Shown: positions 15,150 to 59,074, counted from the first letter of the stretch. The stretch: 64,000 nt of DNA from Candidatus Spongiihabitans sp. (GCA_965261425.1 OZ253452.1:673160-737159); one strand, 5' to 3'. The notes: generated from the letters alone by a model not told the origin. A program made the numbers and translations.

Positions 15150-15160
15150 AAATATCGCCC

Positions 15161-16051: not shown

Positions 16052-16056
16052 CGTGG

Positions 16057-17937: not shown

Positions 17938-17960
17938 GTGTTTTTCGACCTTTACATATC

Positions 17961-18071
17961 GATTGATAATTGATAATTGATAACTGTCCACTGACAACTA
18001 TCTTTTTTTACTGGATTCCTGCTTTCGCAGGAAAGACAGAGGTTCGGTTCTTGCACAATCTCAAACGACTC
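17961..18071. repeat. Heptamer repeat (ATTGATA x3, then ACTGTCC ACTGACA) followed by mosaic repeat modules
   Basis: Direct reading, followed by the shared TTACTGGATTCCTGCTTTCGCAGGAAAGAC module. Confidence 0.85.
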
Positions 18072-18084
18072 TCGTAATTCGTAA

Positions 18085-26615: not shown

Positions 26616-26822
26616 ATGAAATTCAATGTAACAATGATGCAAGACGAAGATGGCGTATGGGTTACTGAATGCCCTGCTATACCGGGTTGTGTAAGCCAGG
26701 GAGAGACGCGACAACGGGCACTTGACAGTATTCAGGAAGCCATTGCGCTTTGTCTTGAGGTGCGCTCCGAAAAAGGATTCCCGCTGACTGTTGAAACGCG
26801 GCAAGTCGATGTCGTGATGTAA
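26616..26822 (+). CDS. hicB: type II antitoxin, HicB family (short form)
   Basis: MKFNVTMMQDEDGVWVTECPAIPGCVSQGETRQRALDSIQEAIALCLE matches the HicB/UPF0150 N-terminal domain. Confidence 0.85.
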   Translation: MKFNVTMMQDEDGVWVTECPAIPGCVSQGETRQRALDSIQEAIALCLEVRSEKGFPLTVETRQVDVVM

Positions 26823-27043
26823 TGCCGGTCTTGCCCTCTTTGAGCGGAAAGGAAGTAACACGGGGTTTTGGAAAATTGGGCTGGATTGTGGTGCGCCGCA
26901 AAGGTAGTCACATTATTCTGACAAAGGAAGGAGAGATGGCTACGCTCTCCGTGCCGAATCATCGGGAAGTTGCCAAAGGAACGCTGAGAAGTTTAATTCG
27001 TTCAGCCGGGCTGACTGTGGATGAGTTTTTAGCAGTGCTATAA
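26822..27043 (+). CDS. hicA: type II toxin, HicA mRNA interferase
   Basis: LSGKEVTRGFGKLGWIVVRRKGSHIILTKEG...HREVAKGTLRSLIRSAGLTVDEFL matches the HicA/YcfA fold. It overlaps the hicB stop. Confidence 0.88.
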   Translation: MPVLPSLSGKEVTRGFGKLGWIVVRRKGSHIILTKEGEMATLSVPNHREVAKGTLRSLIRSAGLTVDEFLAVL

Positions 27044-27291: not shown

Positions 27292-27552
27292 ATGTACTTG
27301 TTAATTCAGACCGTTATGTTTTCAAAAGACAAAGCCACTAGGAATAAAATGTGTGAAAATACAATTGATCGCCTGAATGAGCTTCTTGATTATGTGCGTT
27401 GCGTTGGAAAGCTTAATCAAAAACCAGTGTTCAGAGTAGAAGACTACAAGCAACTACATATTTGGGAGCATGCGTTAAAGGGGAAAATCGGAATCCATCA
27501 TAATATTGTTGATAACGATGGTGTTTCTATCTGGGGCGAATTCAACCCATAA
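27292..27552 (+). pseudogene. 5' fragment of an unknown larger gene, truncated by an IS30 end
   Basis: The ORF (…RLNELLDYVRCVGKLNQKPVFRVEDYKQLHIWEHALKGKIGIHHNI…) runs directly into the IS30 terminal repeat. Its last codons, W-G-E-F-N-P-stop, are IS sequence. Confidence 0.6.
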
Positions 27553-27826
27553 GTGCAACACGGTGGTTAAAGAAATAGTCTTTGCCCATCATTTCAGCAA
27601 AGACCTCGAAAGGGGTCTTAAATCCCAGACATTTTCTGGGACGATTATTCATTAAATCTGTTGCTGTTTTCACCGCATTGTCAGTGATTTTATCAAGTTT
27701 CATCTTTTTCGGGAAGAACTGTCTCAATAGCCCGTTATGGTTTTCATTCGATCCACGCTCCCAGCTATGATACGGCTTGGCAAAGTAAGTGTTGCAATTT
27801 AATTGTTTGGCAATTTCATTACACAA
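27535..27826 (-). mobile_element. IS30-family element, right-end fragment (transposase C-terminus only)
   Basis: …YFAKPYHSWERGSNENHNGLLRQFFPKK…LNNRPRKCLGFKTPFEVF is the conserved IS30 DDE C-terminal region. The N-terminal roughly 250 aa are missing. The ORF ends inside the terminal repeat. Confidence 0.88.
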
Positions 27827-28528: not shown

Positions 28529-29338
28529 TTGGAGAATGATATGCAGTTATTACACAAAGCGAATCACGATCAAGCGCAAAAAATCAATATCACTCCGCAA
28601 ATTGCGAACTGGCAATATGTTGGGTTTTGCGCTTTAACCTTAAAAAAAGGGGCACTCTGGCACGATGAGTGTCAAGACAAAGAATGTTGTATCGTCATTT
28701 TAGCTGGCAAGGCGACGATTACGGTAGCCGACCACTGTTATAAAAACATTGGAGAACGAAAATCTCCCTTTGATGAAATCCCGCCCTATGCGGTTTATAT
28801 CCCGCCCAATACGCCGGTGCAGATTAAAGCGGAAACCGATTTAGAAGTCGGCATTGGTAGCTCAACATCGGTTACCGGACAATATCCCGCACACCTGATT
28901 GAGCCTGATCAAGTCAAGGTTTCTCACCGCGGTAAGGGCGGTAATGCGCGCCGAATTCACAATATCTTGATGTTAGACCAAGCGGCAGAACGGCTCTTAT
29001 TGACCGAAGTATTTACCTCCAGCGGGCATTGGTCAAGCTATCCGCCACATAAACATGATTTGGATCAATTGCCACAGGAATCATATCTTGAAGAAACCTA
29101 TTATCACAGAATTAACCCCGCACAAGGGTTTGTATTCCAAAGAGTTTATACCGATGACTTTTCTCTGGACGAAAGCATGGCAGTCTATGATAAAGATTGT
29201 GTGATTGTGCCTAAGGGGTATCACCCGGTGGGAGTGCCCTATGGTTATCAATCGTATTACTTGAATGTCATGGCAGGACCGGTGCGTGATTGGAAGTTTA
29301 GCAATGACCCAAACCATGAATGGATTTTAGCGGATTAA
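28529..29338 (+). CDS. iolB: 5-deoxy-glucuronate isomerase
   Basis: 269-aa cupin with GHWSSYPPHKHD and KGYHPV motifs typical of IolB. Confidence 0.88.
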   Translation: MENDMQLLHKANHDQAQKINITPQIANWQYVGFCALTLKKGALWHDECQDKECCIVILAGKATITVADHCYKNIGERKSPFDEIPPYAVYIPPNTPVQIKAETDLEVGIGSSTSVTGQYPAHLIEPDQVKVSHRGKGGNARRIHNILMLDQAAERLLLTEVFTSSGHWSSYPPHKHDLDQLPQESYLEETYYHRINPAQGFVFQRVYTDDFSLDESMAVYDKDCVIVPKGYHPVGVPYGYQSYYLNVMAGPVRDWKFSNDPNHEWILAD

Positions 29339-29367: not shown

Positions 29368-29485
29368 GATACTGTGTCAAATCTTTATGGGCAACCCTTG
29401 CGGGTTTGGCTATTTTACTGGATTCCTGCTTTCGAGACTGTGCAAAAAACCAATATTCGGCATTCCTAACCCCCCTTGCCCCCCT
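29368..29485. repeat. Mosaic intergenic repeat ending in the IS110 target string CCTTGCCCCCCT
   Basis: GATACTGTG.., CAACCCTTGCGGGTTTGGCTATTTTACTGGATTCCTGC, GAGACTGTGCAAAAAACCAATATTCGGCATTCCTAACCCCCCTTGCCCCCCT. The stem-loop followed by a T-run after iolB may terminate transcription. Confidence 0.8.
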
Positions 29486-29909
29486 CGTATGATCCCAATC
29501 GGGTAAATTATCAACTCGTTTAGTGGTTTTTAATGGACCCTATCCAACGGCGGTTGGATGGGTAGTCGTGATGCAGTAGCCCCCAGTAAGTTTTTAAACT
29601 TGTTGATAAGGTATCGCACCTACTACCCGCTTTACCGGTTTTTGCTCCTCGACAATTGCTCCTGCATTGTTCTAATAAGTTACATCCATGTAACGATACA
29701 AAACCGGCATACGACCGCCATGGATGGCGGAAGTGCAAATAATGCAGGAGCAATTATTTGCCCGTACATCCTTGTACATTAACATCATCAAGTGCGGACA
29801 GTATCTGGTGCAAGACCAAAAATCTGAGCACGAATAGTACGAGGATGCACCGAAGTTAAATGATCCAACCTATCTACAATTATAACCGGAGAATGTGATG
29901 TTATGTATC
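29486..29909 (+). mobile_element. Second IS110-family copy: left end plus the first 4 codons only (truncated)
   Basis: Apart from the 145-nt insertion it is nearly identical (a handful of mismatches) to the reverse complement of 6591-6867, including ATG TTA TGT ATC (MLCI). Homology stops at 29909. Confidence 0.9.
29635..29779 (-). mobile_element. Hairpin-module miniature element, 145-nt form (core plus modules B and C) inside the IS110 left end
   Basis: It is absent from the otherwise near-identical copy at 6603-6867. The filled site reads CCCGCTT-TA-[145 nt]-TA-ACATCATC and the empty site reads CCCGCTT-TA-ACTTCATC. Confidence 0.9.
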
Positions 29910-29935: not shown

Positions 29936-30442
29936 ATGACAGTAGAGATTATGCGAACGGACAAGTCGGCCTGCGATCTTCGGCGCGCCGCTGCGGCGTG
30001 CAGGGACGCGAAAGCGGCCCGACGGATGCTGGCGATTGCGTTGATTTTGGACGGCACTGACCGCAAGACGGCGGCCGCGAACTGCGGGATGGATCGCCAG
30101 ACGTTGCGTGACTGGGTACACCGTTACAATGACGCGGGGATTGAGGGTCTCTCGAACCGGCGTTCGCCAGGACGGCAGCCCCTGCTCAGCGTGGCACAGA
30201 AGGCGGAGTTGGCATCGCTTGTGCGTGAGGGGCCGGATCCCGAAACGGACGGCGTGGTGCGCTGGCGGCGCATTGACCTCAAGCGCAAGATTGAGGAGCG
30301 CTTTGGCGTTGTCATGCATGAGCGGACCGTTAGCAAACAACTGGTAAAACTTGGTTTTCGACGCTTGTCTGTGCGCCCGCAGCATCCGAAATCCGACCCG
30401 GATGCGCAGGATGCGTTTAAAAAAACTTCGCTGCAGAGGTAG
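29936..30442 (+). CDS. IS630-family transposase OrfA (HTH / DNA-binding part)
   Basis: Winged-helix/HTH region (…RQTLRDWVHRYNDAGIEGLSNRRSPGRQPLLS…) typical of IS630/Tc1 N-termini. It ends 17 nt after an A7 run. Confidence 0.85.
   Translation: MTVEIMRTDKSACDLRRAAAACRDAKAARRMLAIALILDGTDRKTAAANCGMDRQTLRDWVHRYNDAGIEGLSNRRSPGRQPLLSVAQKAELASLVREGPDPETDGVVRWRRIDLKRKIEERFGVVMHERTVSKQLVKLGFRRLSVRPQHPKSDPDAQDAFKKTSLQR
30419..30425 (+). promoter_or_regulatory. A7 slippery run: candidate -1 ribosomal frameshift or transcriptional slippage site joining OrfA and OrfB
   Basis: GCG TTT AAA AAA ACT in frame 0. Slipping back one base gives …KK-NFAAEV… and continues into the DDE domain. Confidence 0.6.
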
Positions 30443-30999
30443 CGGCCGTTCTGCCCAAAACGGCCTGCGGCAAACCATTGGAGATTTGGTTTCAGGACGA
30501 AGCTCGTGTGGGTCAGCAAGGGACGCTGACACGTATATGGGCCGAACGGGGAACCCGGCCGCGTGCGCCGCGTGATACACGTTATACGTCGGGCTATATC
30601 TTCGGCGCGGTTTGTCCCGAACGCGCCGAGGCTGCTGCGCTGATCATGCCGTATGCGGACACGTCCGCTATGAATGCACATCTGTGCGAGATCGCCAGGA
30701 CGGTCGCGGCTGGGGCCCATGCCTTGCTCATCCTCGACGGTGCAGGCTGGCACGGATCAGCAAAACGGGAAGTGCCAGACAACATCACCCTGCTCAAACT
30801 CCCGCCCTATGCGCCAGAACTCAACCCGATGGAAAACGTTTGGGCCTACCTGCGCGCCAACAAGCTGGCAATCTCTGTGTTTGAATCCTACGATGAGTTC
30901 GTCGACAAATGCTGCGATGCCTGGAATTTCTTCGCAGAGGACAAACAGGCAATCACATCAATTACATCACGTAATTGGGCCAAAACAGTCAATCAATAG
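30424..30999 (+). CDS. IS630-family transposase OrfB (DDE domain), -1 frame relative to OrfA
   Basis: From AAC at 30424 the -1 frame reads NFAAEVAAVLPKTACGKPLEIWFQDEARVGQQG…LILDGAGWH…PPYAPELNPMENVW, which carries the DDE triad contexts. An OrfA-OrfB fusion would be about 355 aa. Confidence 0.85.
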   Translation, partial: NFAAEVAAVLPKTACGKPLEIWFQDEARVGQQGTLTRIWAERGTRPRAPRDTRYTSGYIFGAVCPERAEAAALIMPYADTSAMNAHLCEIARTVAAGAHALLILDGAGWHGSAKREVPDNITLLKLPPYAPELNPMENVWAYLRANKLAISVFESYDEFVDKCCDAWNFFAEDKQAITSITSRNWAKTVNQ

Positions 31000-31194
31000 A
31001 GCCGTTGGACTAATAGGGTCGATAACGAACACTTGGCGACACCAATTACGATTGGACGTGTACGGATCGTGCCGATTGCTTAGCTAGGACAGATTAGATA
31101 TCTAAAACCGATTTTGTGAGCAGACTCTAATTAATGGGACAGTTAATTTACTCGTAACAACATTTGAGCTTTGGGTTGACAATTATGGTTTTGT

Positions 31195-32817
31195 TCATGC
31201 ACGTCGATCTTTTTTAATCATGTCAGATGCTTTTTCAGCGATCATAATCACGGGCGAATTGGTATTTCCTGAGATAATCGTAGGCATGACAGATGCGTCA
31301 ACAACCCTAAGGCACTGCAAGCCATGTACCCGTAGTCGCTCATCTACGACCGACAAGTCATCGCACCCCATTTTGCAGGTGCCGACTGGGTGAAAAATGG
31401 TTGTCGCAATATTACCAGCTTCGTGCACTAATTCTTCATCCGATTTTATGTGCTCACCCGGCAATAATTCCTCAGGTTCATAGTGGGATACCGCACTGGC
31501 TTTCATAATTTCTCGGGTCAACCTGATGGATTTAGCCGCAATATCGCGGTCGTTTTTTGTGGATAGATAATTCGTCCAAATTGCCGGTTGTTCCTTATTG
31601 TCCGTTGATTTAATATGTATTGTCCCTCGGCTTTCCGGACGTAAATTACAAACTGATGCCGTAATCGCTGGGTAAGGATGAAGCGGATCACCAAGCTTAT
31701 CCGTACTGAGCGGTTGAATATGATATTCCAAATCCGGTGTCGCAATACGCGGATCACTTTTGGCAAATAGCCCTAACTGACTGGGTGCCATTGATAACGG
31801 GCCGGATCTGAACAGAGCATATTCCATGCCCATGGCTATTTTACCAAGCAGGCTATTCGCTTTTTGATTTAAGGTAATAGCGTTCTTAATTTTAAATACG
31901 GTACGTATCTGCAAGTGATCCTGGAGATTTTCTCCAACGCCACCTAACTCGTGTATCATCGGAATTCCAAATTTGGATAAAACGTCACCACAGCCGATAC
32001 CGGATAGTTCCAAAATCTGGGGGCTATTCACTGCACCAGCAGCTAATATGACCTCGCCATCAGCCATCGCCGTTGCAGGTTTTCCCTTTAATTCAAAGTT
32101 TACTCCTACCGCTTTTTTACTCTCAATAATTAAGGAGGTGGTATGCGCGTGTGTCAGTACTTTCAGGTTTGGGCGTTTGAGGGCTGGCTTAAGAAAAGCC
32201 CGTGCCGTACTCATGCGCCACCCACCTTTTTGGTTTACCTCAAAATAACCTGAACCTTCGTTATTGCCACCATTGAAATCATCGGTTTTCGGTATACCAA
32301 CTTCTTCAGCAGCGTCTCTAAAAGCATCCAGAATATCCCAGGACAGGCGCTGTTTATCCACCTGCCACTCACCGCCGGATCCATGCATATCACTTTTTCC
32401 TAGATAGTGATTTTCGGACTTGATGAAAAAGGGCAGAATATCGTCCCATCCCCAACCTGTGTTACCCAGATGACACCAATGGTCATAATCTGCCGCCTGA
32501 CCACGCATATAGATCATACCGTTAATGGAAGAACATCCCCCAAGCACCTTGCCCCGAGGATAGTTCAATCTGCGCCCATTTAACCCGGCATCAGGTTCAG
32601 TCCTCATCATCCAGTCGGTGCGGGGGTTACCCATACAATAGAGATAACCGATTGGGATATGTATCCAGTGATAATTATCTTTGCCACCCGCCTCCAGTAA
32701 CAAGACTTTAATATCAGAGTCTTCACTAAGACGATTTGCGAGCACACAACCGGCAGAGCCAGCACCGATGATAATGTAGTCAAAGCTACCTGCTTCTATA
32801 TTTTTTACTTTTGACAC
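31195..32817 (-). CDS. GMC-family FAD oxidoreductase (choline/alcohol dehydrogenase-like)
   Basis: [20 protein letters not shown] dinucleotide fold, the [14 protein letters not shown] signature, and the C-terminal HPVGTCKMG. Confidence 0.88.
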
Positions 32818-32995
32818 CCTGCTCTACCTATTTGTTGTGTTCGCGATACTTAATATTGGTACTCGAGGTTTCAGTTCGACTAAAAGCTCATAGGCTCCAA
32901 GTGTCGATGTTGGGCTGCCAAATTCATAAAGGCTTTCGGCTTCATCGACCACGAGTGAGTAAATCCAATTGATTTCATTTCACTGTTCCCTGTTT

Positions 32996-34513
32996 TTAAT
33001 TATTGGAAAGGCTTTTTAGTTTGTCCCATGAAGGACCAAGGTCATCACAAAGCGCAGAGAATATCTCATACCGCTTCGCATAAACTTCCTGCTTTTCTGG
33101 GTTGGGTATGTAGTTCCGGTCTAGTTTTGTCATTTGCCTAACACCGGTCTCGTAGCCATCAAACACGCCCGCCCCGATCCCAGCTGTTATGGCAGCACCC
33201 AGCGCTCCTGTTTCATGACACTTTGCGATGGAAACCGGAACATTTAGGATGTCCGCAAACATTTGAGGCCAAATCGGGCTTCGAGATCCTCCGCCAGATA
33301 AAATTACTTTGTTAAAATCGGCTCCAACTGCACGTAGAGTTTCGACGTGTTTACGATGACTGAAAACCACCCCCTCATAGAGCGCGTACAGCATTTCAGA
33401 ACGTCCATGCCATCCGCCGATACCGTAGAACCCGGCTCGAGCTGCACCGTTAGTGCTCGACCCATAAAGAAACGGGTGATAGATCGGTAACCCAGCGTTT
33501 AATTCCACCCCCGCAACCAAATCATTGCATACATGAAAAGGGGATATCCCGTTGTCCTGATCCATGCATGGCTCTATAAACTCGCGGACGAACCATTCAA
33601 GATTGGCCGCAGAGGTGGCACTCGATTCCAGCTCCATATAACGATCTTCACGGAAAGTCGAAGTCATGAATATTGTGTCATCAACCAACGGCTTCTCGAC
33701 TATGACCTGATTGATGCACCAAGTTCCCGCAACAATAGAAGCCTCCCCCAGCTCAACAACACCAGAACCAAGCGCACTCGCAACCACATCAAATAAGCCA
33801 GCGACAACTGGGATGCCTTCAAGCAACCCTGTTTGAGATGCGGCAGTCGCATTTATAGTACCAACGACTTCATAGGGTTCGGCCAAGGGAGGGAGCTTGT
33901 CTTCACATTCGGCAACGCCAAAAAGGTCAAGTAATTCAATGTCGTATGTACGTTCTGGTAATTTCAAGAACGCACAACCACTCATATCTGAAAAATCGCT
34001 TCCAAGGACACCTGTCAGCTTGTAGGTGACAAAATCCTTGCATAAGAAAATAGTCCCGATATTTGCATAAAGCTCCGGGTCATTTTCTTTGACCCAAGCC
34101 AATAATGTGGGGGTTTGAGACGACCATGGCTTTTGTAAACATAAGCGGTAAAGGCTATCTGCGGTGCCGTCTTTTTGCCAGCGATCAACCAGCCCCATAG
34201 CCCGACTATCCAATGACTGTATACCAAGTAATGCCTCTTTATTTTTATCCAATAGGTAAAGACCATTCCCATGACCACTACAACCAACAGCCAAAATATC
34301 AGAAGTATCAATTTCGGTCTTGGCGATGCATCCGCTGATAGCCGCTTGCGCTTGGCTCCACAGTTCGTTCATGTCACGTTCGACATATCCAACCTGTGGA
34401 TAGGCCGATGTCCCATCTTTGGAGCAAACCGCGACTTCATTACCATCAAGATCGAATAATACTGCCTTGAGCATTGTGTTCCCCGCATCCAAGCCCAATA
34501 GATAAGATCCCAT
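32996..34513 (-). CDS. FGGY-family carbohydrate/polyol kinase
   Basis: LGLDAGNTMLKAVLFD phosphate-1 motif, 505 aa, and the C-terminal ILSGGGSRSPIWPQMFADIL motif. Confidence 0.85.
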   Translation of the reverse strand: MGSYLLGLDAGNTMLKAVLFDLDGNEVAVCSKDGTSAYPQVGYVERDMNELWSQAQAAISGCIAKTEIDTSDILAVGCSGHGNGLYLLDKNKEALLGIQSLDSRAMGLVDRWQKDGTADSLYRLCLQKPWSSQTPTLLAWVKENDPELYANIGTIFLCKDFVTYKLTGVLGSDFSDMSGCAFLKLPERTYDIELLDLFGVAECEDKLPPLAEPYEVVGTINATAASQTGLLEGIPVVAGLFDVVASALGSGVVELGEASIVAGTWCINQVIVEKPLVDDTIFMTSTFREDRYMELESSATSAANLEWFVREFIEPCMDQDNGISPFHVCNDLVAGVELNAGLPIYHPFLYGSSTNGAARAGFYGIGGWHGRSEMLYALYEGVVFSHRKHVETLRAVGADFNKVILSGGGSRSPIWPQMFADILNVPVSIAKCHETGALGAAITAGIGAGVFDGYETGVRQMTKLDRNYIPNPEKQEVYAKRYEIFSALCDDLGPSWDKLKSLSNN

Positions 34514-34540
34514 AGTGTTTCTCCGTCTTATCCTACTGCC

Positions 34541-35383
34541 TTACGCGCTTTTGTAGATATCCCAGGCTTGATCACTGGTCGCCCCATCATGGATCATTGC
34601 CATCAACCCCCTTACAACTTGCTTGGGGTTGTCATGTTGGTAGATATTGCGACCATAAACCATGCCTTGAGCCCCCTGTGCCATAAGGGCATAGGACTTG
34701 TCGAAAACGGTTTTCAAATCTTCTTTACCACCACCACGAACAAGAACTGGACAACGGGAAGCCTCAATAACTTTATGAAAGTCAGAAGAATCACTGGTAG
34801 GATCTGCTTTGATAATATCCGCCCCCATTTCACGTGCGAGACGTGCCAAAGTTACGATTTTTTCAGCATCGCCATCGACCATATACCCGCCACGATCACT
34901 GTTAGGCAACATGACCAAGGGTTCTATCATCAGTGGCATTCCGTACTTTTCACAATCGTTACGAACTCGGGCAATATTAGAGACGCATTGGCGGAATAGA
35001 TCAGGCTCATCCGGCAACATGAACAAATTCACAACCACACATGCCGCATCCAATTGTAAGGCAGCGAGAATAGGCTCTTCAGTATTTTGAAGTTCTGCCC
35101 ACATAATGCGATGTCGCGTAGCATTATAGGGATTCCCCATATCAATACGCATTACTAGCGCAGGTTTATCCTTACCTGGCTTGGTTTGGAGTAAATCACA
35201 TTCGCCATAATTCATTTGAATGGCATCGGGACCTGCATCCACTAATTGATCGACAACTTTTCCAATGTCTTCCAAGCCATTTAAAAAAGATGGCTCATTA
35301 CAAACCCCGTGATCTATCGCTACATCCAGACATTTTCCGTGTCCGAATAGACGATTCATTCGCATTTTTTTACTTATTAACAT
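34541..35383 (-). CDS. DhnA/FbaB/LsrF-type class I aldolase family protein
   Basis: 280-aa TIM-barrel ORF with LDVAIDHG…, …ADIIKADPT… and VLVRGGG… contexts typical of this family. Confidence 0.7.
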   Translation of the reverse strand: MLISKKMRMNRLFGHGKCLDVAIDHGVCNEPSFLNGLEDIGKVVDQLVDAGPDAIQMNYGECDLLQTKPGKDKPALVMRIDMGNPYNATRHRIMWAELQNTEEPILAALQLDAACVVVNLFMLPDEPDLFRQCVSNIARVRNDCEKYGMPLMIEPLVMLPNSDRGGYMVDGDAEKIVTLARLAREMGADIIKADPTSDSSDFHKVIEASRCPVLVRGGGKEDLKTVFDKSYALMAQGAQGMVYGRNIYQHDNPKQVVRGLMAMIHDGATSDQAWDIYKSA

Positions 35384-35392
35384 TGGTATTTC

Positions 35393-37132
35393 CTAATTTG
35401 ATTTTCTTTGACGTAGGACTTCTTCTGAAAGGCCGTGAAAATGATATAGAAGATTCAAAATCTCCTCCAACTCCAGATCCTTTAACTCTGAGGTCCAATT
35501 TTTCATTTTGGCCAGTATCCCGAGAATTTCATGGATAACCGCAAGCGATAAATCACCGCTGATTGCAATGGATGTGCGTCGACATATAATATCGCTAAGG
35601 TGTACGACGCGTTCGTTTTCAATAATAAATTCGATCTCTTGTTTTGAATAACTAGGTAAATTATTTAAGGGCTGATCTGATTTTTCAGTTATATACTCAA
35701 GAACTTGCGTGGCATTCGTGCCATAACGCTCAACGAGAGTGCTGATACGCTTTTTATCCAGATTGGATCTGCTGGCTAAATCGGAAACCCACTTTGAATG
35801 TTCCCCATGCATCTTGGGAAAGTTCCGTCCCCCACCGATTGCCAGATCACGCGTTGAAATTGCTCTTGGTATATCGAGCATTTCCAATATCTGGTTTGCA
35901 ACCTGTTCTCCAAAGGCACGGAAAGTCGTCCATTTCCCGCCAATCATGCATAAAACGGGGATCCTATAACCTTCATCTTTTGATACTATCTTACAATAGT
36001 AATCACGGCTTATCCGCCCCGTAACCGTACTATCGCTTTGGGGAAGAGAACGAACACCACTAAATGAATAGAGAATATCAGACGGATCAATCGCGATATT
36101 TGGGAACACAAATGCCAACGATTGCAGAATATAATCACGCTCAAAATCTTCGCAGCGGCTACCTTCTGGATTATCTAGTTTTAAATCCGTTGACCCGACC
36201 AACACGTTGCCAAAATAAGGAAATAGAATACACACCCGACCTTCTTGGTTTTCGTAATAAACCATTTGGTTTCCAGTTGCTTTTAATAAATCTTTATTGC
36301 GAATTACCAGGTGAGAACCTTTGGTACCTCCAACAATATTGGTTTTTTTATTTTCAGGGGACGACGATAACGCACCGTTTGTAAAATCCATCCATGCCCC
36401 GGTGGCATTGACTATAAGGTCTGGCTTAATTGTGATGCGCTCTCGTGTTTTTACATCCGTTATATGAACGACTTCACCATCAGACCCATCAACATTCATG
36501 TAATTAAGCGCGTTCGCTTTGGGATGGCTTTTTTCGATATCCCTAATCATTTCAAGACCAAGGCGTTCGGGGTAGGTGATCCAGGCATCATAATAGATGG
36601 CGCTACATTTCACATCAGGATGAAAATCAGGCAAAGCATCAAAGGTCTCTCGCTTACCACGAAACTTATGCTTCGGCATGACGCGATCTGACCTAGTAAA
36701 GAGGTCATAAAGGGCTAAGCCTATTTTTACGATTATGGCACCGCGGCGCGATGGTTTCTCAGACAGCCCTAAAAACCGCCGAGTTGCCCCCCAAACACCT
36801 GTGAAGTAATGAAAAACAGGGACAACTGTTGCCAGTGGAGTCACATAATGTGGTGCGTTTTTTAGAAGATTGTTGCGCTCGCGAAGAGCTTCTTTGACCA
36901 ATTGAAACTCACCATTTTCCATGTAGCGTAAACCACCATGTATCATTCGCGACAACGCCGTACTTGCCCCACTACAAAAATCATTGCGTTCGACCAAAAC
37001 CACATCAACACTCTGGAGTGCCAATTCACGGTAAAGACCAATGCCGTTGATGCCCCCACCCACAATCAAAACCGAAGGGTTTTGATTGTTACGAAGCGCA
37101 CTTAGCGTATGTTCTCGTGTCTGGTAGGACAT
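35393..37132 (-). CDS. FAD-dependent glycerol-3-phosphate-dehydrogenase-like (GlpD/EryB-like) oxidoreductase
   Basis: VLIVGGGINGIGLYRELA FAD fold, SRMIHGGLRYMENGEF signature, and a C-terminal alpha-helical domain; 579 aa. Confidence 0.82.
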   Translation of the reverse strand: MSYQTREHTLSALRNNQNPSVLIVGGGINGIGLYRELALQSVDVVLVERNDFCSGASTALSRMIHGGLRYMENGEFQLVKEALRERNNLLKNAPHYVTPLATVVPVFHYFTGVWGATRRFLGLSEKPSRRGAIIVKIGLALYDLFTRSDRVMPKHKFRGKRETFDALPDFHPDVKCSAIYYDAWITYPERLGLEMIRDIEKSHPKANALNYMNVDGSDGEVVHITDVKTRERITIKPDLIVNATGAWMDFTNGALSSSPENKKTNIVGGTKGSHLVIRNKDLLKATGNQMVYYENQEGRVCILFPYFGNVLVGSTDLKLDNPEGSRCEDFERDYILQSLAFVFPNIAIDPSDILYSFSGVRSLPQSDSTVTGRISRDYYCKIVSKDEGYRIPVLCMIGGKWTTFRAFGEQVANQILEMLDIPRAISTRDLAIGGGRNFPKMHGEHSKWVSDLASRSNLDKKRISTLVERYGTNATQVLEYITEKSDQPLNNLPSYSKQEIEFIIENERVVHLSDIICRRTSIAISGDLSLAVIHEILGILAKMKNWTSELKDLELEEILNLLYHFHGLSEEVLRQRKSN

Positions 37133-37178
37133 TTTGAAACTTTCTTATGGCGGAATACGGTCGAGATTTAAGGAAAAA

Positions 37179-38174
37179 TTAGACATCCATGTTCTGCAAA
37201 TACTTAAAGACCGTAGCACTAATTTGTGCAACATCGCCCTCCGCAAGAGAGATAGTGCCAGCGCGTGCGTTCTCAATGGCTTGAGCGAGATTTCTCGCTC
37301 CGCATAGCGCAAAAGTAATACCTGGTTGCTGTAGCGTCCAAGCGATTACCAATTGAACCGTCGTTATCCTGTAATCATTTGAAATCGGCTTGATTTCTTC
37401 AAATAGAGAGGAAATCTTCTCGCGGTTGGAAATACTGAAACGAGGATGATCTTTGCGCTGATCATCGCCATCGAACTGGCGGTCAGGACCAATCTTTCCA
37501 GACAATAAACCGAGTGCAAGAGAAGAGTAGCTTAAAATAGATACATTGTTGGATTGGCAAATAGGCAGGAGTTCCGCCTCTACCCCACGATCTAACATTG
37601 AATAACACTCTTGAATAGCATCAACGGTGCCTGTGGCAAGGTAGGCATTTAGGTCATCGGTTGTAATGTTACTAATACCAACGGACCTGATTTTGCCCTG
37701 TTCTTTAAGGATCTCCATCGCCTCCAGTGTTTCAGAGACAGGGGTCGTTGAATCTTGCCAGTGCGTAATGTAGTGATCGATATAATCCGTACCCAACCGC
37801 TTCAGGCTCTGCTCAACTTCATAAATAATTGATTCTTTGCCAAGGAAACGATGAATCGGTTTATCCTCTTGATCAAAAAAGTAGCTGCCGCTATTCGTGT
37901 GCCAAACCAGACCACATTTAGTTGCCAAAACAACCTTGTCACGGCGACCTTTAAGGGCGCGACCAACGAGTTCCTCGGATTTCCCCATCCCGTAAGCTGG
38001 CGCAGTATCGATTAAGGTAATTCCTTCCGCAATGGCCGCTTGGACGGCATTTACGGATTGATCTTCATCCGTGCCGCCCCACATCCAGCCACCCATAGCC
38101 CAAGTACCCAAACCAACAGCTGTAGCTTTGATACCAGACTTGCCAATTTCTCTCGTGATTACTGAACCAGTCAT
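37179..38174 (-). CDS. aldo/keto reductase
   Basis: The start is set at MTGSVITREIGKSG… (ATG at 38174, with AAAGG 10 nt upstream). GLGTWAMGG, IDTAPAYG and the DHYITHW motif. Confidence 0.85.
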   Translation of the reverse strand: MTGSVITREIGKSGIKATAVGLGTWAMGGWMWGGTDEDQSVNAVQAAIAEGITLIDTAPAYGMGKSEELVGRALKGRRDKVVLATKCGLVWHTNSGSYFFDQEDKPIHRFLGKESIIYEVEQSLKRLGTDYIDHYITHWQDSTTPVSETLEAMEILKEQGKIRSVGISNITTDDLNAYLATGTVDAIQECYSMLDRGVEAELLPICQSNNVSILSYSSLALGLLSGKIGPDRQFDGDDQRKDHPRFSISNREKISSLFEEIKPISNDYRITTVQLVIAWTLQQPGITFALCGARNLAQAIENARAGTISLAEGDVAQISATVFKYLQNMDV

Positions 38175-38202
38175 AATAATGTTACCTTTATAAGGTTGCC
38201 TT

Positions 38203-39168
38203 TCAAATACTCTCAAGGACGCCGAGGGCTGTTGCTTCATCAACGACCAGGGCTTTCACATGTTTTCCACGCAATATTGAACAAATAGGCGCGACTTTAT
38301 TTTCACCACTCGCGATGCCAATTGTCAGTGGTACCCTTGCTAATTCTTCAGGTCTTAAAGCCACCAACTTTGAATTCAGGGAATAGCTGCACAGACCACC
38401 CTTTTCATCGAGAAGATGAGCCAGGAGTTCACCAGAAGCACCTGCTTTTCGAATATCGTCCTGATCATCCTTGGGCATCGGATGCAGGTCGTAATAACTT
38501 GAATCCGCTGATAAGATTGAACCCACGCCAAAAACAGCGATATTCGCATTACGTGCACGATCCAAGATTTCTTCAACAGAACGCATCGTCATCAGCATGT
38601 CTTTTTGCTCATCACTTTCTGCAAACAAAGGGGCATGAATTTGATAGGCACGACCGCCAAGCTTTTCTGCCATCTGCGTCGCTACGTGATTGACATCAGT
38701 ATAATGTTTACCTTGCACGCATCCCGTCGCGGGGACGACTTCAACATCATAAGTACGTTCAGGATTGAGACCTTCAACAATCGCACTGACACCCTTGCCA
38801 CCTGTAATACAGATCGTGTCGCCATCTTTCAGATTTTCCAGCAACATGTTTGCCCCGGCCTCACCGACCGTTTGCAACACTACATCCGGGTTATCTGAAA
38901 GCGTGGGCGTCACCATTGCTTCTTGGATGCCACCAATTTTTTTAAGACTTGCTTCTACATCCAAAAGAGGCTGAAACGGCGACTTGATGATTATCTCGAC
39001 CATTCCTCTATCGCGGCCTTGTTTAATCAAACGATTGACCTTGGCAGTCGACAGGCCCATCGCCTGAGCAATATCTGACTGTTTCAAACCTTCGAGATAA
39101 TACATGACCAAAACACGATAAATTTGGCGGGCAGTCTCATAGCCCTGGATGTCATTCCCTAACGCCAT
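38203..39168 (-). CDS. SorC/DeoR(Bsu)/LsrR/EryD-type sugar-phosphate-binding transcriptional regulator
   Basis: N-terminal HTH (LKQSDIAQAMGLSTAKVNRLIKQGRDRGMVEI) followed by a sugar-binding domain; 321 aa. Confidence 0.85.
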   Translation of the reverse strand: MALGNDIQGYETARQIYRVLVMYYLEGLKQSDIAQAMGLSTAKVNRLIKQGRDRGMVEIIIKSPFQPLLDVEASLKKIGGIQEAMVTPTLSDNPDVVLQTVGEAGANMLLENLKDGDTICITGGKGVSAIVEGLNPERTYDVEVVPATGCVQGKHYTDVNHVATQMAEKLGGRAYQIHAPLFAESDEQKDMLMTMRSVEEILDRARNANIAVFGVGSILSADSSYYDLHPMPKDDQDDIRKAGASGELLAHLLDEKGGLCSYSLNSKLVALRPEELARVPLTIGIASGENKVAPICSILRGKHVKALVVDEATALGVLESI

Positions 39169-39199
39169 TTATAGTACCCCATCGACATCTTAATTTTAC

Positions 39200-40213
39200 T
39201 CATCCTGCTTTTTTCTTGTTCATATAGTGGTCAAAAATAATGGCAGCCAATAGGATCCCTCCCCTGATGATGTCCTGCCAGTAAACAGATACATCCAAAA
39301 GAGCCAGCGAACTGGTTACAACTGACAATAATACTGTTCCTAAAATCGCCCCAAAGATGGTCCCTGAACCACCCTTTAAACTTGCCCCACCAATCACGAC
39401 TGCAGCAATAACATTCAGTTCCATGCCAAGCCCAAAATATGGCGGGGCAGACGCAAAACGTGCCATAAAAATTATTCCGGCCACACCGCACAAAGTGGAA
39501 CAAAGTACCGTTGAGAGAAAAATCACCTTCTTGGTGCGGATACCCGCATAGGTAGCAGCCTTCTCATTACTTCCTGTGTAAAAAACTTTGCGAAACGCCG
39601 TGGAATTCCGAACTAAATAGTCAAAGACAAAAACAACGACGAGAAAGATAACGATTACAATAGGGATTGCACCAATTGATCCCTGACCAATAAACTTGAA
39701 TTCTGCGGGTAAGGCGTATAATCCAAACGGACGCCCCTGTGTTATAAGAAGGGCGACCCCACGGATGATAACCATAAATGCCAGAGAAACGATAAAGTGA
39801 TGCAATCCAATTTTTGTCACACAATAGCCCATTGCCACACCGACCAGTGAAGTGGCTAAAATCGCTATTACAGAAGCTACCCAAGGGTCAACACCGTTCA
39901 GAAATAACCAGCCTGCAACTACCATAGCGAGGGTCACGACAGAGCCAACAGACAAATCAATGCCGCCAGCTATCATCAATACACACATCCCAACCACGAC
40001 GATGCCTTCAACCGCAAATGCCATCCCCATCGCCCGCATGTTTAACCAGGTCAAAAAATAAGGTGATGTGAAAGACATCACGACAAACAGTATGACGATA
40101 ATAACAATCAACCCTGTTTCTCGCATGGCTGCCACACGGCGTAGCCTATCGATTAACCCGTTTTTCTGCGGCATTTCATTGTCAGTGCCCGTGAATGTAT
40201 CTGAACGGCTCAT
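39200..40213 (-). CDS. sugar ABC transporter permease (RbsC/AraH type)
   Basis: 337-aa polytopic ORF with the typical GGIDLSVGS motif. Confidence 0.88.
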   Translation of the reverse strand: MSRSDTFTGTDNEMPQKNGLIDRLRRVAAMRETGLIVIIVILFVVMSFTSPYFLTWLNMRAMGMAFAVEGIVVVGMCVLMIAGGIDLSVGSVVTLAMVVAGWLFLNGVDPWVASVIAILATSLVGVAMGYCVTKIGLHHFIVSLAFMVIIRGVALLITQGRPFGLYALPAEFKFIGQGSIGAIPIVIVIFLVVVFVFDYLVRNSTAFRKVFYTGSNEKAATYAGIRTKKVIFLSTVLCSTLCGVAGIIFMARFASAPPYFGLGMELNVIAAVVIGGASLKGGSGTIFGAILGTVLLSVVTSSLALLDVSVYWQDIIRGGILLAAIIFDHYMNKKKAG

Positions 40214-40223
40214 GCGCGCTTCC

Positions 40224-41753
<1,530 letters not shown>

Positions 41754-41892
41754 CGCCCTGCTTCACACTTTGAGATTTTTGAGGTTAAAGTTTGAATGAT
41801 TTTTTTTGGAGTGCCGTCCGTCGGGGAGAGAATTCATGGGAGATATCCCTCCTCGACGATACAGCATGTCCAAAGATAGATTTACGTTAGTC

Positions 41893-42897
41893 TCAACGAT
41901 CTTTCATATAAGCACCGAGATCAAAATCATCGGCATTATTTTTGGTAACGACAGCGAATCCGTTATCAATAAAAGGAACACCCATTGGGTTAAATCCTGT
42001 CCGTTTATAGTCATTGAACGGATCAATCAAGTTTGGGTGAGCCGCCATGAACGTTGCTATAAATCCCATATAACCCTGCATACCCTGGTTCGGGCTCAAA
42101 GCTTGATGAATGTTACCTGCTTTGATGTGTTCGCGGGTCACTGGACTGATATCGGCGTGCATAATGATAACTTTTGCCTTGGCTTCCAAAACTGCCTGAA
42201 CAGCACCCTCCGCTGAGCCAGCTTCTGGGATCCATAAAGCCCCGAGATCTGGGTTTGCCTGTAGCATGGAAGAAACCGCCGTATAGGCTTTAGATGCATC
42301 CTGGTTTGTCGCCTGACGACCGACTAACTCCATGTCAGGGTAGTTTTCCTCCATGTAGGCAATGAACGCAGTTACACGAAGATCATGATTGCTCTGACCT
42401 GGATTTTCCAAAACACCGAACTTGCCTTTCTCACCCATAATTTTGGCGATTTCATCCGCAGCATACTTAGCCTCAGCCAGATTGTCGGATGTAATATAGG
42501 AAACACGATTTGATTTTGGTGAATCCGCAGCAAAAGTAACAATGGTCGTGCCATTTTCAATTGAACGATTGATGGGCTCAATAAAGGGATCGGCGTTCAT
42601 TGGGTGTAGCAAAATACCGGCAGGTTTTTTAGCCAGATCCTGTTCGAAAGAAGCTATCTGCTTAGTAATGTCATATTCAGGTGTGCCTGAAAATTTTACC
42701 TCGCACCCCATGGCGGTCGCCGCTTGTTTAAAGCCTTCAAACACAGGAACCCAATAAGGATGGCCTGAAACCATCACGTTCATAATGTATGTCTCGCCCG
42801 GTGTGCAGACAAATTTACTGTCCGCCAAACTAGCTGTACTTGTTAATCCGGTCGAAAGAAACATGGCCATTACGGCCGTTATCAATAGTTTTTTCAT
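41893..42897 (-). CDS. periplasmic sugar-binding protein (type I PBP, RbsB/LsrB-like)
   Basis: Signal peptide MKKLLITAVMAMFLSTGLTSTASLA (start moved to 42897); about 334 aa; first gene of the transporter operon. Confidence 0.85.
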   Translation of the reverse strand: MKKLLITAVMAMFLSTGLTSTASLADSKFVCTPGETYIMNVMVSGHPYWVPVFEGFKQAATAMGCEVKFSGTPEYDITKQIASFEQDLAKKPAGILLHPMNADPFIEPINRSIENGTTIVTFAADSPKSNRVSYITSDNLAEAKYAADEIAKIMGEKGKFGVLENPGQSNHDLRVTAFIAYMEENYPDMELVGRQATNQDASKAYTAVSSMLQANPDLGALWIPEAGSAEGAVQAVLEAKAKVIIMHADISPVTREHIKAGNIHQALSPNQGMQGYMGFIATFMAAHPNLIDPFNDYKRTGFNPMGVPFIDNGFAVVTKNNADDFDLGAYMKDR

Positions 42898-43605
42898 TAC
42901 GCACTCCAATTGTTTAGGTTAAATTATATTTCACTTGATGATATTTATTTCACAAGCGGATTGTAGTTTAGGAGGCAAGTTGAGTCAAGCCCTTTTTCAA
43001 GAATGTTAGCCCAAAGCAGTAATGTCCCCTTTTGACTTCTTCAGGAGCGGTGCGGCGGGCTCACCGAGCGAGGGTTATGACAGAGGAGATAATTACATTG
43101 AGCCATGCAGATGAGCTGGGCAGAACTTGACCGAGTATCGGTTATTCATTCCATTATCGGGTGCCGGCGAGACCAGCACAGGCGGCGCGGCAACTACACT
43201 TAGGTCTCCGGCAGGTAAAACGCTTAACCCACGCTTATCGAGACTGTGGTGCGGCTGGACTTGCCTCCAAGCGGCGTGGGTGCCCGGCAACGCCATTGGT
43301 GATGAGTTGCGCCAACAGGCACTCGCCATCATCAAGACGCACTATGGTGATTTTGGGCCGACTTTCGCGCACGAGAAGCTCACCGAACTGCATGAGTGCC
43401 ATTTCTCGGTGGAGACATTACGAAAGTGGATGATTAAAGATGGGTTGTGGTTGGGGAAACAGCGTAAAAGAGTAGCCATCCACCAAAGCCGGTCTCGGCT
43501 GGGCGAGCTGGTACAGATTGATGGATCACCGCATGATTGGTTTGAGGGGCGCGCACCTAATTGCACTTTAATTGTCTTTATCGATGATGCGACCAGTCGG
43601 CTATA

Positions 43606-43748
43606 TGTACAGGATGTACGGGCAGATAGCTGCTCCTGCATTATCTGCACTTCCGTCTTCCATGACGGTCGTATGCCGGTTTTGCATCGCTACATGGATG
43701 TAACTTAGTAGGGCAATGCAGGAGCAATTGCCGAGAAGCAAAAACCGG
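43606..43748 (+). mobile_element. Hairpin-module miniature element, 143-nt form (core plus diverged modules B and C) inside the transposase ORF
   Basis: It has the same module order as 29635-29779. Removing exactly 43606-43748 rejoins …DDATSRLY|LALHFAPTETT… in frame. Confidence 0.85.
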
Positions 43749-44112
43749 CCTGGCTTTGCATTTTGCGCCCACAGAGACCACTCAATCGTATATGGAAACC
43801 CTCCATCAGAAACTTGAACAGCATGGCCGCACAGTCGCTATTTACAGCGATAAGCACAGTATCTTTCGGGTCAATCATCCCCAAAATAAAGAAATAGCAC
43901 GAGGGCGAATTAACCCAATTTACCCGCGCACTCAAAACCCTAGATATTGAGCCTATTCACACCAATACCACGCAGGACAAAGGGCGGGTAGAACGTGCCA
44001 ATAAAACGCTGCAAGACCGACCGGTTGTCGATCCGCGCTTACAGGGTATCAACTCTATTGAGCAAGCAGATGCCTTTTTGCCACAGTTTATTGACGACTA
44101 CAACCAGCGTTT

Positions 44113-44129
44113 TACCCGCAGGGCACAAG
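44113..44129 (-). repeat. 17-nt cassette (TACCCGCAGGGCACAAG, the reverse complement of CTTGTGCCCTGCGGGTA) inserted in the ISNCY-like ORF
   Basis: The upstream frame (…FIDDYNQRF) and the downstream frame (AVTAQHTDNAHRALL…) differ by exactly this 17-nt block. Confidence 0.8.
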
Positions 44130-44281
44130 TGCCGTTACCGCGCAACACACCGACAATGCACATCGTGCGCTATTGCACAGCGTCGAGGAGCTTAAACTGA
44201 TCCTCTGCCGGCACCATCAGCGTAAACTGTCTAAGAATTTAACCTTATCATTTTGTAACACCGAATATCAGCTGACTGGCT

Positions 44282-44298
44282 CTTGTGCCCTGCGGGTA
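44282..44298 (+). repeat. 17-nt cassette CTTGTGCCCTGCGGGTA inserted in the ISNCY-like ORF (opposite orientation to 44113)
   Basis: After …NTEYQLTG the frame breaks. Removing the block gives …LTG-YGKGYRLMR…. A separate 1-nt indel near 44325 then leads into ATITLCEDG…. Confidence 0.7.
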
Positions 44299-44733
44299 AC
44301 GGCAAGGGCTATCGTCTGATGAGGAGCGACCATCACGCTCTGCGAAGACGGTGCTACGGGTTTGGTTACATTGCTATACAAAGGCAAGGCATTGACTTAT
44401 CGAACGCTCCAAAAGGGAAAGGCCGCCGTTGTGATTGCCGATGATAAGACCGTTCATAACCACGTTGAGCCAAGCACTTCACCGACAACAAAAATTCACT
44501 TAGAAACCCGCACCAGATCATCCATGGCGGAGACCATTAACCCGTTATTCAACCAATACTGCCCCATAATGAATATAAAAAGGGGACATTACTGCTTTGG
44601 GTTGACACTATTTTGAAGTTGAAAATTACGACCCTTGTTTATGGTAAATCTGTTTTATTCTCCGTGTCCTCTGTGCCCTCGGTGTCGCATCTTTTAGAAA
44701 ATCTTGTTCATCCTGTTCATCCATGTAAATAGT

Positions 44734-44782
44734 GGAAAACCCTTGCGGGTTTGTTTGTTTTACTGGATTCCTGCTCCCCGCC
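44734..44782. repeat. Mosaic repeat module (GGAAAACCCTTGCGGGTTTG…TTTTACTGGATTCCTGC)
   Basis: The module is shared with 29391, 63175 and, in reverse, 15100 and 59055. Confidence 0.8.
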
Positions 44783-58950: not shown

Positions 58951-59074
58951 ACCCGTCTTCCCCGCGTAGGAGACTGTGCAAAAAACCAACATCCGTCATT
59001 CCTGCGAAGCCTGTCCCCGCGCAGGCGGGGAGCAGGAATCCAGTGAAACACACAAACCCGCAAGGGTTTTCCGC
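58951..59074. repeat. Mosaic intergenic repeat (GAGACTGTGCAAAAAACCAACATCCGTCATTCCTGC, GC hairpin, GGAATCCAGTGAAAC…AAACCCGCAAGGGTTTTC)
   Basis: Modules shared with the other mosaic repeats. Located between the divergent argS and fbpA genes. Confidence 0.85.

Follow-up and report, generated by a model that had tools for sequence, protein, structure and literature searches.

What is encoded by the nine co-oriented genes on the minus strand at 31195-42909 of a 64,000-nt stretch from Candidatus Spongiihabitans sp. (GCA_965261425.1, OZ253452.1:673160-737159; the whole stretch is called the window here), which combine gene families known from erythritol (Ery) catabolism and from the Lsr system for autoinducer-2 (AI-2)? 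Judged by gene content and protein identity, the cluster is neither an ery nor an lsr locus, and its resemblance to both is at the family level only (23-37% identity). It belongs to a widespread alphaproteobacterial operon type that forms its own orthologous groups and was noticed in 2012, and it is not a unique hybrid. We propose, with a probability of about 0.5, that the operon serves the catabolism of a C4-C6 aldose or alditol via an alditol phosphate and a ketose-1-phosphate to dihydroxyacetone phosphate (DHAP). As the original prediction had anticipated, the substrate could not be named from sequence alone.

The genes are all intact and follow one another in the order substrate-binding protein (SBP), double ATPase, permease, SorC regulator, aldo/keto reductase (AKR), long GlpD-like dehydrogenase, DhnA-type aldolase, FGGY kinase, and GMC oxidoreductase. 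The number, orientation, and families of these genes had been predicted correctly: each open reading frame (ORF) was recovered in place and gave a strong Pfam match to the family assigned to it. The Peripla_BP_4 SBP, the fused double ATPase, and the BPD_transp_2 permease together make up a CUT2 (ribose-type) ATP-binding cassette (ABC) importer. None of the nine proteins reached the cut-off of a curated NCBIfam equivalog model, the models tested including XylB, LsrK, GlpK, GlpD, LsrF, LsrR, LsrB, RbsB, AlsB, YdjG, and BetA.

The ery locus on plasmid pRL12 of Rhizobium johnstonii 3841 and the lsr locus of Escherichia coli were used as comparison sets. The kinase is 26% identical to EryA, 28% to LsrK, and 38% to another FGGY kinase of pRL12 (FGGY2); the SorC regulator shares 29% identity with EryD and 28% with LsrR, the SBP 25% with EryG and 23% with LsrB, the ATPase 37% with both EryE and LsrA, and the permease 32% with EryF and 33% with LsrC. 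The GlpD-like enzyme, which has no Lsr counterpart, matches EryB at 30% identity over 65% of its length, and the aldolase, which has no Ery counterpart, is 28% identical to LsrF. Thus, the earlier description of the cluster as a combination of ery-like and lsr-like families is correct for the families and does not extend to orthology. At 26% identity the kinase does not qualify as an EryA ortholog, nor does the dehydrogenase as an EryB ortholog, being a 579-aa long form as opposed to the short EryB of ~500 aa. Scores against the Lsr equivalog models were likewise under the cut-offs (219 vs. 528 bits for LsrK, 139 vs. 486 for LsrR, and 102 vs. 297 for LsrF).

Gene content points in the same direction. 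The true erythritol locus of pRL12 comprises EryA, a 503-aa EryB, EryC, EryD, a DeoR regulator, TpiB, and RpiB, with EryEFG alongside. In agreement with the original prediction, no homologs of EryC, TpiB (TpiA2/EryH), RpiB (EryI), or LsrG were found in the whole window (tblastn, E ≤ 1), and there is one permease only. In common with the Brucella/Rhizobium ery pathway, the cluster has a SorC regulator, a CUT2 importer with one permease, and an FGGY kinase with a GlpD-family dehydrogenase as the next step, but the identities are 25-37%, a class I aldolase stands in place of the three isomerases, and the AKR and GMC genes are additional. Similarly, a CUT2 importer, an FGGY kinase, and a SorC repressor are encoded together in both the cluster and the Lsr system, along with an enzyme of the DhnA fold that has a Schiff-base lysine, but the cluster differs in lacking LsrG, in its one permease, and in containing the AKR, GlpD-like, and GMC genes.

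The arrangement had been called unfamiliar, which proved wrong. The same nine genes are present in the same order on a related metagenomic contig, L008, at 89-99% amino acid identity (92% for the GlpD-like enzyme). The order is also found in Rhodospirillales, Hyphomicrobiales, and other alphaproteobacterial metagenome-assembled genomes (MAGs), in Sinorhizobium medicae and Aminobacter aminovorans, on pSymB of many S. meliloti strains including 1021 (NC_003078.1, 515180-526964), and on Rhodobacterales plasmids of Qingshengfaniella, Parasedimentitalea, and Alloyangia. The pSymB operon has the same nine genes, order, and orientation as the window; in strain 1021 these would be SMb20504-SMb20496, as judged from the flanking tfxG (SMb20505) and the tetratricopeptide repeat gene SMb20495 and not read from the annotation. 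Proteins of the S. medicae copy are 52-73% identical to those of the window. In the Rhizobiales operons the kinase and GMC genes overlap by 4 nt, whereas the window copy has a remnant of a zinc-dependent alcohol dehydrogenase (Zn-ADH) gene between them, insertion sequence (IS) flanks, and a gammaproteobacterial host. The aldolase occurs in ~190 plasmid records, rhizobial and roseobacter, 180 of them at 60-80% identity. No orthologous cluster was found at the start of R. johnstonii 3841 pRL12, and a search for near-identical DNA in plasmids and E. coli genomes gave no useful match. Exactly this gene set was described previously as a "putative Lsr system in Rhizobiales," with its function left open and more research called for (Quan and Bentley, 2012; PMC3420918). 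Otherwise, the literature yielded one proteomics table entry for SMb20504, and the S. meliloti cluster genes are not mentioned in the supplements of diCenzo et al. (2016).

In a census of 15 loci (13 distinct), the AKR, GlpD-like, aldolase, and FGGY genes, in that order, form an invariant core (15/15), and SorC is present in all but one. The window-type transporter with one permease is found in 10 loci, and a two-permease transporter with an unrelated SBP (~21% identity) in four. The GMC gene is present in 10 of the 15 loci and fragmented in an eleventh, and a Zn-ADH gene directly follows the kinase gene (before GMC where GMC is present) in five. The presence of an SGL gene varies among the loci; in one of them (L016) an SGL-type lactonase gene follows the kinase gene, at the usual place of GMC. 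All nine genes are under purifying selection, with ratios of nonsynonymous to synonymous substitution rates (dN/dS) of 0.05-0.25 relative to the L008 copy. The conserved order in at least 13 distinct loci, together with this purifying selection, argues that the cluster is not a chance grouping. On plasmid pW43B of Parasedimentitalea marina, a Dabb-family gene (15126-15437) stands after GMC; Dabb proteins form a dimeric alpha/beta barrel, the fold class of LsrG.

The GlpD-like enzyme scores under the cut-offs of the GlpD models (266 vs. 360 bits and 221 vs. 352 bits) and is thus not GlpD proper; it is 26% identical to E. coli GlpD, 26-28% to true glpD products, and 42% to a long GlpD of pRL12. 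Nevertheless, it has the DAO and DAO_C domains and conserves the equivalents of E. coli GlpD R54, H233, R317, R332, and K354, and so belongs to the GlpD/GlpO alpha-glycerophosphate dehydrogenase family. We take these five, from the E. coli GlpD structure, to be the catalytic and phosphate-binding residues. Within the family it is a member of a long-form clade of 570-580 aa, whose genes adjoin FGGY kinase genes in at least five other cluster architectures. Among them is a DUF2291-ABC-DeoR-FGGY-GlpD set on pRL12 beside a class II fructose-1,6-bisphosphate (FBP) aldolase gene; one set in Burkholderia includes a TpiA-like gene, and those of Agrobacterium, R. daejeonense, and Vibrio contain CUT1 transporters as well as aldehyde dehydrogenases. 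The window enzyme is predicted to be an alditol-phosphate 2-dehydrogenase. The pRL12 DUF2291 cluster contains the closest paralogs of the window kinase and dehydrogenase and follows the same logic of kinase, long GlpD, and aldolase, but its aldolase is of the metal-dependent class II, its regulator is DeoR and not SorC, its transporter is a different one, and AKR and GMC are lacking. On pRL12 (203836-212513), the DeoR gene, this second FGGY kinase gene, and the long GlpD-like gene lie directly 3' of the erythritol transporter genes and by the class II FBP aldolase gene, a second architecture, next to that of the window, of kinase, long GlpD, and aldolase. The window has two further ORFs of 579 aa, which were rejected as possible GlpD paralogs because they encode an arginyl-tRNA synthetase and an ABC permease.

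The aldolase matches MJ0400 (91 bits), LsrF (61 bits), and the Thermoproteus tenax FBP aldolase (FBPA; 59 bits) among solved structures. The LsrF structure study identified Lys203, Asp57, and an LsrF-specific Asp251, and noted that LsrF has no counterpart of the catalytic Tyr found in T. tenax FBPA and MJ0400 (PMC2728841). We surveyed the corresponding positions in 126 members of the orthologous group of the window aldolase. The equivalents of Lys203, Asp57, His58, Gly226/227, and Gly253-Arg254 are invariant in all 126; they correspond to the Schiff-base Lys, the general-base Asp, and the phosphate-binding His, Gly-Gly, and Gly-Arg (PMC2728841), and place the protein among the DhnA/archaeal-type class I aldolases (PF01791). 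By contrast with the FBPAs, the position of the catalytic Tyr (T. tenax Tyr146, MJ0400 Tyr153; the Tyr of the "LWAY" motif of E. coli FbaB was taken as its counterpart by alignment) is Leu in 126/126 orthologs. The position of Asp251 is Val, again without exception, so that the LsrF active site is only partly kept. Two group-specific Tyr residues, in GGY and VYGRN, are invariant throughout the group. Because the FBPA Tyr is replaced by Leu and Asp251 by Val, and because the group has its own invariant Tyr pair, the aldolase is a distinct DhnA subfamily. It is also unusually conserved, at 73-91% identity across orders vs. 45-72% for the dehydrogenase.

Taken together, these enzymes suggest the following route. 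The CUT2 system would import a small neutral sugar or sugar alcohol, and the AKR would reduce an imported aldose to the alditol, or else reduce an aldehyde released later. The FGGY kinase would then phosphorylate the terminal CH2OH, and the long GlpD-like flavoenzyme would oxidize the CHOH beside the CH2O-P to give a 2-ketose-1-phosphate, with the electrons probably passing to quinone. A 2-ketose-1-phosphate would be a natural substrate for a DHAP-forming Schiff-base aldolase, and the DhnA-type enzyme may form its Schiff base with the ketone and split the molecule into DHAP and a short aldehyde; which aldehyde this is (formaldehyde, glycolaldehyde, lactaldehyde, or glyceraldehyde) would vary with the substrate. 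An alcohol or aldehyde side product may be handled by the GMC enzyme and, in some relatives, by a Zn-ADH, and the SorC repressor probably senses a phosphorylated intermediate. Kinase action followed by GlpD-type oxidation next to the phosphate is an established polyol route in EryA-EryB of Brucella and Rhizobium. The predicted end of the route is that of the fucose, rhamnose, and DHAP-shunt type of pathway: a ketose-1-phosphate yields DHAP and a short aldehyde, and the aldehyde is subsequently oxidized or reduced. Pathways of that type, however, use an isomerase, a 1-kinase, and a class II aldolase, whereas the window has no isomerase and a class I DhnA-type aldolase, and a reductase, a kinase, and a flavoprotein dehydrogenase would stand in for the isomerase-plus-1-kinase steps.

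This chemistry leaves no enzyme of the cluster without a role, and it is supported by the conserved GlpD and aldolase residues, the invariant four-gene core, and the recurrent pairing of FGGY kinases with long GlpD-like enzymes. The sequence of polyol, polyol phosphate, ketose-1-phosphate, and DHAP plus aldehyde had been offered in the original prediction, and it is still the most coherent reading, although we infer every enzymatic step of it as well as the order in which the AKR and GMC enzymes would act. If the enzymes accept sn-glycerol-3-phosphate (G3P) and D-erythritol-1-phosphate, they would by our reasoning also accept the alditol-1-phosphates derived from D-glucose, D-galactose, D-xylose, D-ribose, D-allose, L-arabinose, and L-rhamnose, and would not accept those from L-fucose or D-mannose.

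Several observations weigh against the proposed route. A long GlpD-like homolog of ~50% identity in Terriglobia stands alone by PfkB and KDPG-aldolase (Eda) genes, with no FGGY kinase, which suggests that polyol phosphates may not be the substrates of every long-form GlpD-like enzyme. With no equivalent of the catalytic Tyr that T. tenax FBPA and MJ0400 possess, the aldolase might catalyze something other than simple retro-aldol cleavage. The roles of the AKR and GMC enzymes are given solely by their fit to the chemistry, and three redox enzymes exceed the needs of a simple polyol route. In addition, a full-text literature search gave no functional study of, or substrate for, the operon or any ortholog. 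By the same search, close orthology to an already characterized pathway, which the original prediction had named as the outcome that would speak against it, was not encountered.

Four other explanations were weighed. One of them, a special case of the proposed route, is a variant tetritol pathway in which erythritol or L-threitol would be phosphorylated and oxidized as by EryA and EryB, and the resulting erythrulose-1-phosphate cleaved to DHAP and formaldehyde. The kinase, GlpD-type dehydrogenase, SorC regulator, and single-permease CUT2 importer do mirror EryA, EryB, EryD, and EryEFG at the family level, and an aldolase is present where the isomerases are absent. We nevertheless consider it unlikely, given the low identities to EryA, EryB, EryD, and EryG reported above, the short length of true EryB (~503 aa), the dedicated ery locus of S. 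meliloti (eryB = SMc01620), and the absence of a formaldehyde-detoxifying gene from the cluster; that many Rhizobium plasmids carry the cluster would also count against it if the same strains have an ery locus. Conservation of the GlpD catalytic residues, as well as the solitary ~50% identical relative, which stands alone like a housekeeping glpD, would also suit a salvage of trioses or glycerol, in which the AKR would reduce glyceraldehyde or dihydroxyacetone to glycerol, the FGGY enzyme would be a glycerol kinase, the GlpD-like enzyme would be a true G3P dehydrogenase, and the aldolase would cleave or build a hexose phosphate supplying the trioses. AKR, kinase, and GlpD would then reproduce the route from glyceraldehyde through glycerol and G3P to DHAP that is established in liver fructose metabolism. 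This reading is improbable, as the kinase scores 108-125 bits against GlpK models with cut-offs of 498-590, the dehydrogenase is under the GlpD cut-offs and just 26-28% identical to true glpD products, glycerol would need no ribose-type SBP, and there is no second kinase to make a ketose-1-phosphate.

A role in AI-2 metabolism would fit the listing of the cluster as a putative Lsr system (Quan and Bentley, 2012). The operon would then carry out an LsrG-independent destruction of AI-2 (4,5-dihydroxy-2,3-pentanedione, DPD) or a related 1-deoxy-dicarbonyl: the FGGY kinase would phosphorylate DPD, the AKR would reduce its C3 ketone, and the GlpD-like enzyme would oxidize the C4-OH, converting phospho-DPD (P-DPD) to 3-hydroxy-2,4-pentanedione-5-phosphate (P-HPD), normally the task of LsrG, after which the aldolase homolog, acting as an LsrF-type thiolase, would yield DHAP and acetyl-CoA. 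By our reasoning, an NAD(P)H-dependent reductase paired with a respiratory GlpD-type flavoenzyme would arrive at precisely P-HPD, and (S)-DPD has at C4 the same configuration as G3P. It is also in keeping with this scheme that LsrK is the best solved relative of the kinase and LsrF the second-best of the aldolase, that the aldolase shares with LsrF the loss of the FBPA catalytic Tyr, that the regulator is LsrR-like, and that two variants of the locus (L013 and L016) have an Lsr-like two-permease transporter. However, the residues by which LsrB reportedly contacts AI-2 (K35, D116, D166, Q167, P220, and A222), all of them carried by E. coli LsrB, correspond in the window SBP to M, A, N, H, P, and A, so that two of the six are kept in what is an approximate alignment at 23% identity, and the alternative SBP of the two-permease type keeps none. 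The universal Asp251-to-Val replacement, the 28% identities, and the scores far under the LsrK, LsrR, and LsrF cut-offs point the same way, S. meliloti already has what we take to be a true Lsr/Ait system (SMb21016-22), and the GMC enzyme would be left without explanation; we therefore regard AI-2 destruction as quite improbable. The fourth alternative is an oxidative aldonate route, in which GMC would convert an aldose through the lactone to the aldonate, a gluconokinase-like FGGY enzyme and the GlpD-like enzyme would form a 5-keto-aldonate-6-phosphate, and the aldolase would release DHAP and tartronate semialdehyde, the latter being reduced to glycerate by the AKR. The FGGY family includes gluconokinases (173 bits for the window kinase), AKRs include keto-acid reductases, and a lactonase takes the usual place of GMC in L016. 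Yet the nearest relatives of the GMC protein are primary-alcohol/choline-type enzymes and not sugar-C1 oxidases, one locus in three has no GMC gene while the AKR is invariant, and no lactonase is encoded in the window, which makes this the most far-fetched of the four.

The bracketing of the cluster by IS elements, already suspected in the original prediction, was substantiated: an ISNCY element lies at the SBP end, and a remnant resembling its terminal repeat and an IS630 element lie at the GMC end (Table 1). The module between them recurs in L008 at 95.7% nucleotide identity at a different chromosomal site, the neighbors being tsf-rpsB-map-glnD in the window vs. rpsF-rpsR-rplI-dnaB in L008. 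ISNCY adjoins the SBP end in both, in opposite orientations, and L008 also has an IS-end fragment downstream of the GMC gene. With the same module at different sites and the same IS family at its ends, the arrangement is that of an IS-bounded, composite-transposon-like module; in the window its outer ends have decayed and lie beneath IS630. The module also appears to be foreign to its host. Tsf of the host is at most 77% identical to any other database protein, and its named relatives are gammaproteobacterial MAGs, whereas the proteins of the cluster share 72-91% identity with alphaproteobacterial counterparts; the G+C content is 45.3% for the module, 47.1% for the host, and 45.7-46.0% for the closest donor-like MAGs. 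Given the 95.7% identical copy at another site in L008, the module looks like an IS-mediated (ISNCY) acquisition by an uncultured gammaproteobacterium, and the simplest reading is that it came from Alphaproteobacteria. Synonymous divergence (dS) from L008 is mosaic, at 0.02-0.08 for the transporter genes, 0.22-0.27 for SorC-AKR-GlpD, and 0.08-0.09 for aldolase-FGGY-GMC, a pattern that hints at recombination between the module and another allele within its length.

If the proposed chemistry is correct, the operon would represent a general isomerase-free route of reduction, phosphorylation, flavin-dependent oxidation, and cleavage from aldoses and alditols to DHAP. Its aldolase would be a new catalytic subtype of DhnA aldolase, and FGGY-paired long GlpD-like enzymes would gain a role as alditol-phosphate dehydrogenases. 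If instead the operon destroys AI-2, scavenging of quorum signals would be a common trait of rhizobia and marine Alphaproteobacteria, and IS elements could disseminate it. The window copy indicates that the entire pathway travels as a cassette bounded by IS elements, from one chromosomal site to another and from one bacterial class to another. The operon is directly testable, as it is present in the genetically tractable model symbiont S. meliloti 1021.

Table 1. Features of the gene cluster and its surroundings (window coordinates).
Feature	Position	Strand	Basis or remark
SBP of CUT2 (ribose-type) ABC importer	41893-42909	-	Pfam Peripla_BP_4, 1.5e-52
Fused double ATPase	40224-41753	-	Two ABC_tran domains
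Single permease	39200-40213	-	BPD_transp_2; 99% identical to L008
SorC/DeoR-type sugar-phosphate-sensing regulator	38203-39168	-	Pfam Sugar-bind, 1.4e-58, and N-terminal helix-turn-helix
AKR, AKR11-like	37179-38243	-	Pfam Aldo_ket_red, 1.1e-66
Long-form GlpD-like FAD dehydrogenase, 579 aa	35393-37132	-	DAO and DAO_C
DhnA/archaeal-type class I (Schiff-base) aldolase	34541-35383	-	DeoC/LacD, 1.7e-54
FGGY carbohydrate or polyol kinase	32996-34513	-	FGGY_N and FGGY_C
Stub of deleted Zn-ADH gene (FGGY-GMC gap)	32818-32995	-	N-terminus match, tblastn E = 9e-5
GMC flavoprotein oxidoreductase, choline-dehydrogenase/alcohol-oxidase type	31195-32817	-	GMC_oxred_N and GMC_oxred_C
Candidate sigma-70-like promoter 5' of SBP gene	42960-42988	-	TTGACT-17-TACAAT, 10/12 positions; consensus match only
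Mobile module, 11.9 kb	31189-43033	-	Matches L008 2173-14027 over 11,878 nt
Degraded ISNCY-family IS, 35-nt terminal inverted repeats	42999-44612	+	transpos_ISNCY_2 (NCBIfam) on three ORF fragments
Remnant resembling ISNCY terminal repeat, just 3' of GMC stop	31160-31181	+	86% identical to 44586-44607
IS630-family element, transposase in two ORFs	29936-30999	+	Pfam HTH_33 and DDE_3; NCBIfam transpos_IS630

For two of the genes in Table 1, translation probably starts later than the mechanically called ORF start, at a position matching the orthologs: ATG 42897 for the SBP (334 aa) and ATG 38174 for the AKR (331 aa). The SBP has a predicted signal peptide ending SLA/DS; its best solved relatives are the arabinofuranose-binding protein 6sw4 and CbpA 7x0g (~140 bits), and it is 98% identical to its counterpart in L008 and 87% to that of a Rhodospirillales MAG. 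The promoter candidate upstream lies in a region that is conserved in L008. The ATPase scores under the cut-offs of the XylG, RbsA, AraG, and LsrA models, and the AKR under that of YdjG (284 vs. 550 bits), the nearest solved structures of the latter protein being Bacillus subtilis GSP69 (1pz1) and IolS. The kinase reaches 252 bits against XylB (cut-off 380) and has its best structural match in LsrK 5ya0 (160 bits). The GMC protein, at 597 bits, falls slightly under the PRK02106 cut-off of 605; its nearest solved relatives are the chloramphenicol-oxidizing CmO (8b7s) and choline dehydrogenase (9lq0), along with alcohol oxidases, which favors a primary alcohol or aldehyde hydrate over sugar C1 as the site of oxidation.

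The gap of about 180 nt that had been noted between the FGGY and GMC genes is real and measures 178 nt. It opens with MKSIGFTHS, compared with MKSIGFTRS in the intact Zn-ADH between FGGY and GMC in L013, and the closest alphaproteobacterial relatives have an intact Zn-ADH gene at this position. As it starts with the first Zn-ADH codons, the gap is a deletion scar.

The ISNCY transposase is split over at least three frames and interrupted by a ~145-nt repeat at 43605-43748 that resembles a miniature inverted-repeat transposable element; further copies are found in the window at 29635-29779 and 5159-5241 and in L008 at 935-1007. The possibility that direct repeats of 43 nt at 29388 and 44733 mark the att sites of an island, or a target duplication, was rejected, since they belong to a genome-wide family resembling repetitive extragenic palindromes (REP) with five copies in the window. 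These REP-like repeats (38-43 nt, AACCCTTGCGGGTTTG..TTTTACTGGATTCCTGCT, a hairpin with a tail) lie at 15085-15122, 29393-29430, 44738-44775, 59031-59068, and 63178-63215, where none would be expected by chance; at least two stand just 3' of genes (iolB and tsf), and the repeat also occurs in L008. At least four IS families, mostly degraded, are present in 64 kb of housekeeping genes, with IS110 at 5608-6249 and IS30 at 27542-27826 in addition to the IS630 and ISNCY elements, a load that fits an IS-expanded, possibly host-associated genome of ~2.9 Mb. Near the IS30 fragment lies a HicB/HicA toxin-antitoxin pair (26616-27043).

Genes for myo-inositol utilization are scattered in the window, with IolE-like, IolD-like, and IolC-DUF2090 fusion genes in 15161-20004. 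A link between these and the operon, for which the IolS-like AKR and a weak Cgl0159-like match of the aldolase were considered, was rejected as nothing beyond family resemblance. A lone iolB gene (28529-29338) adjoins the IS-rich island.

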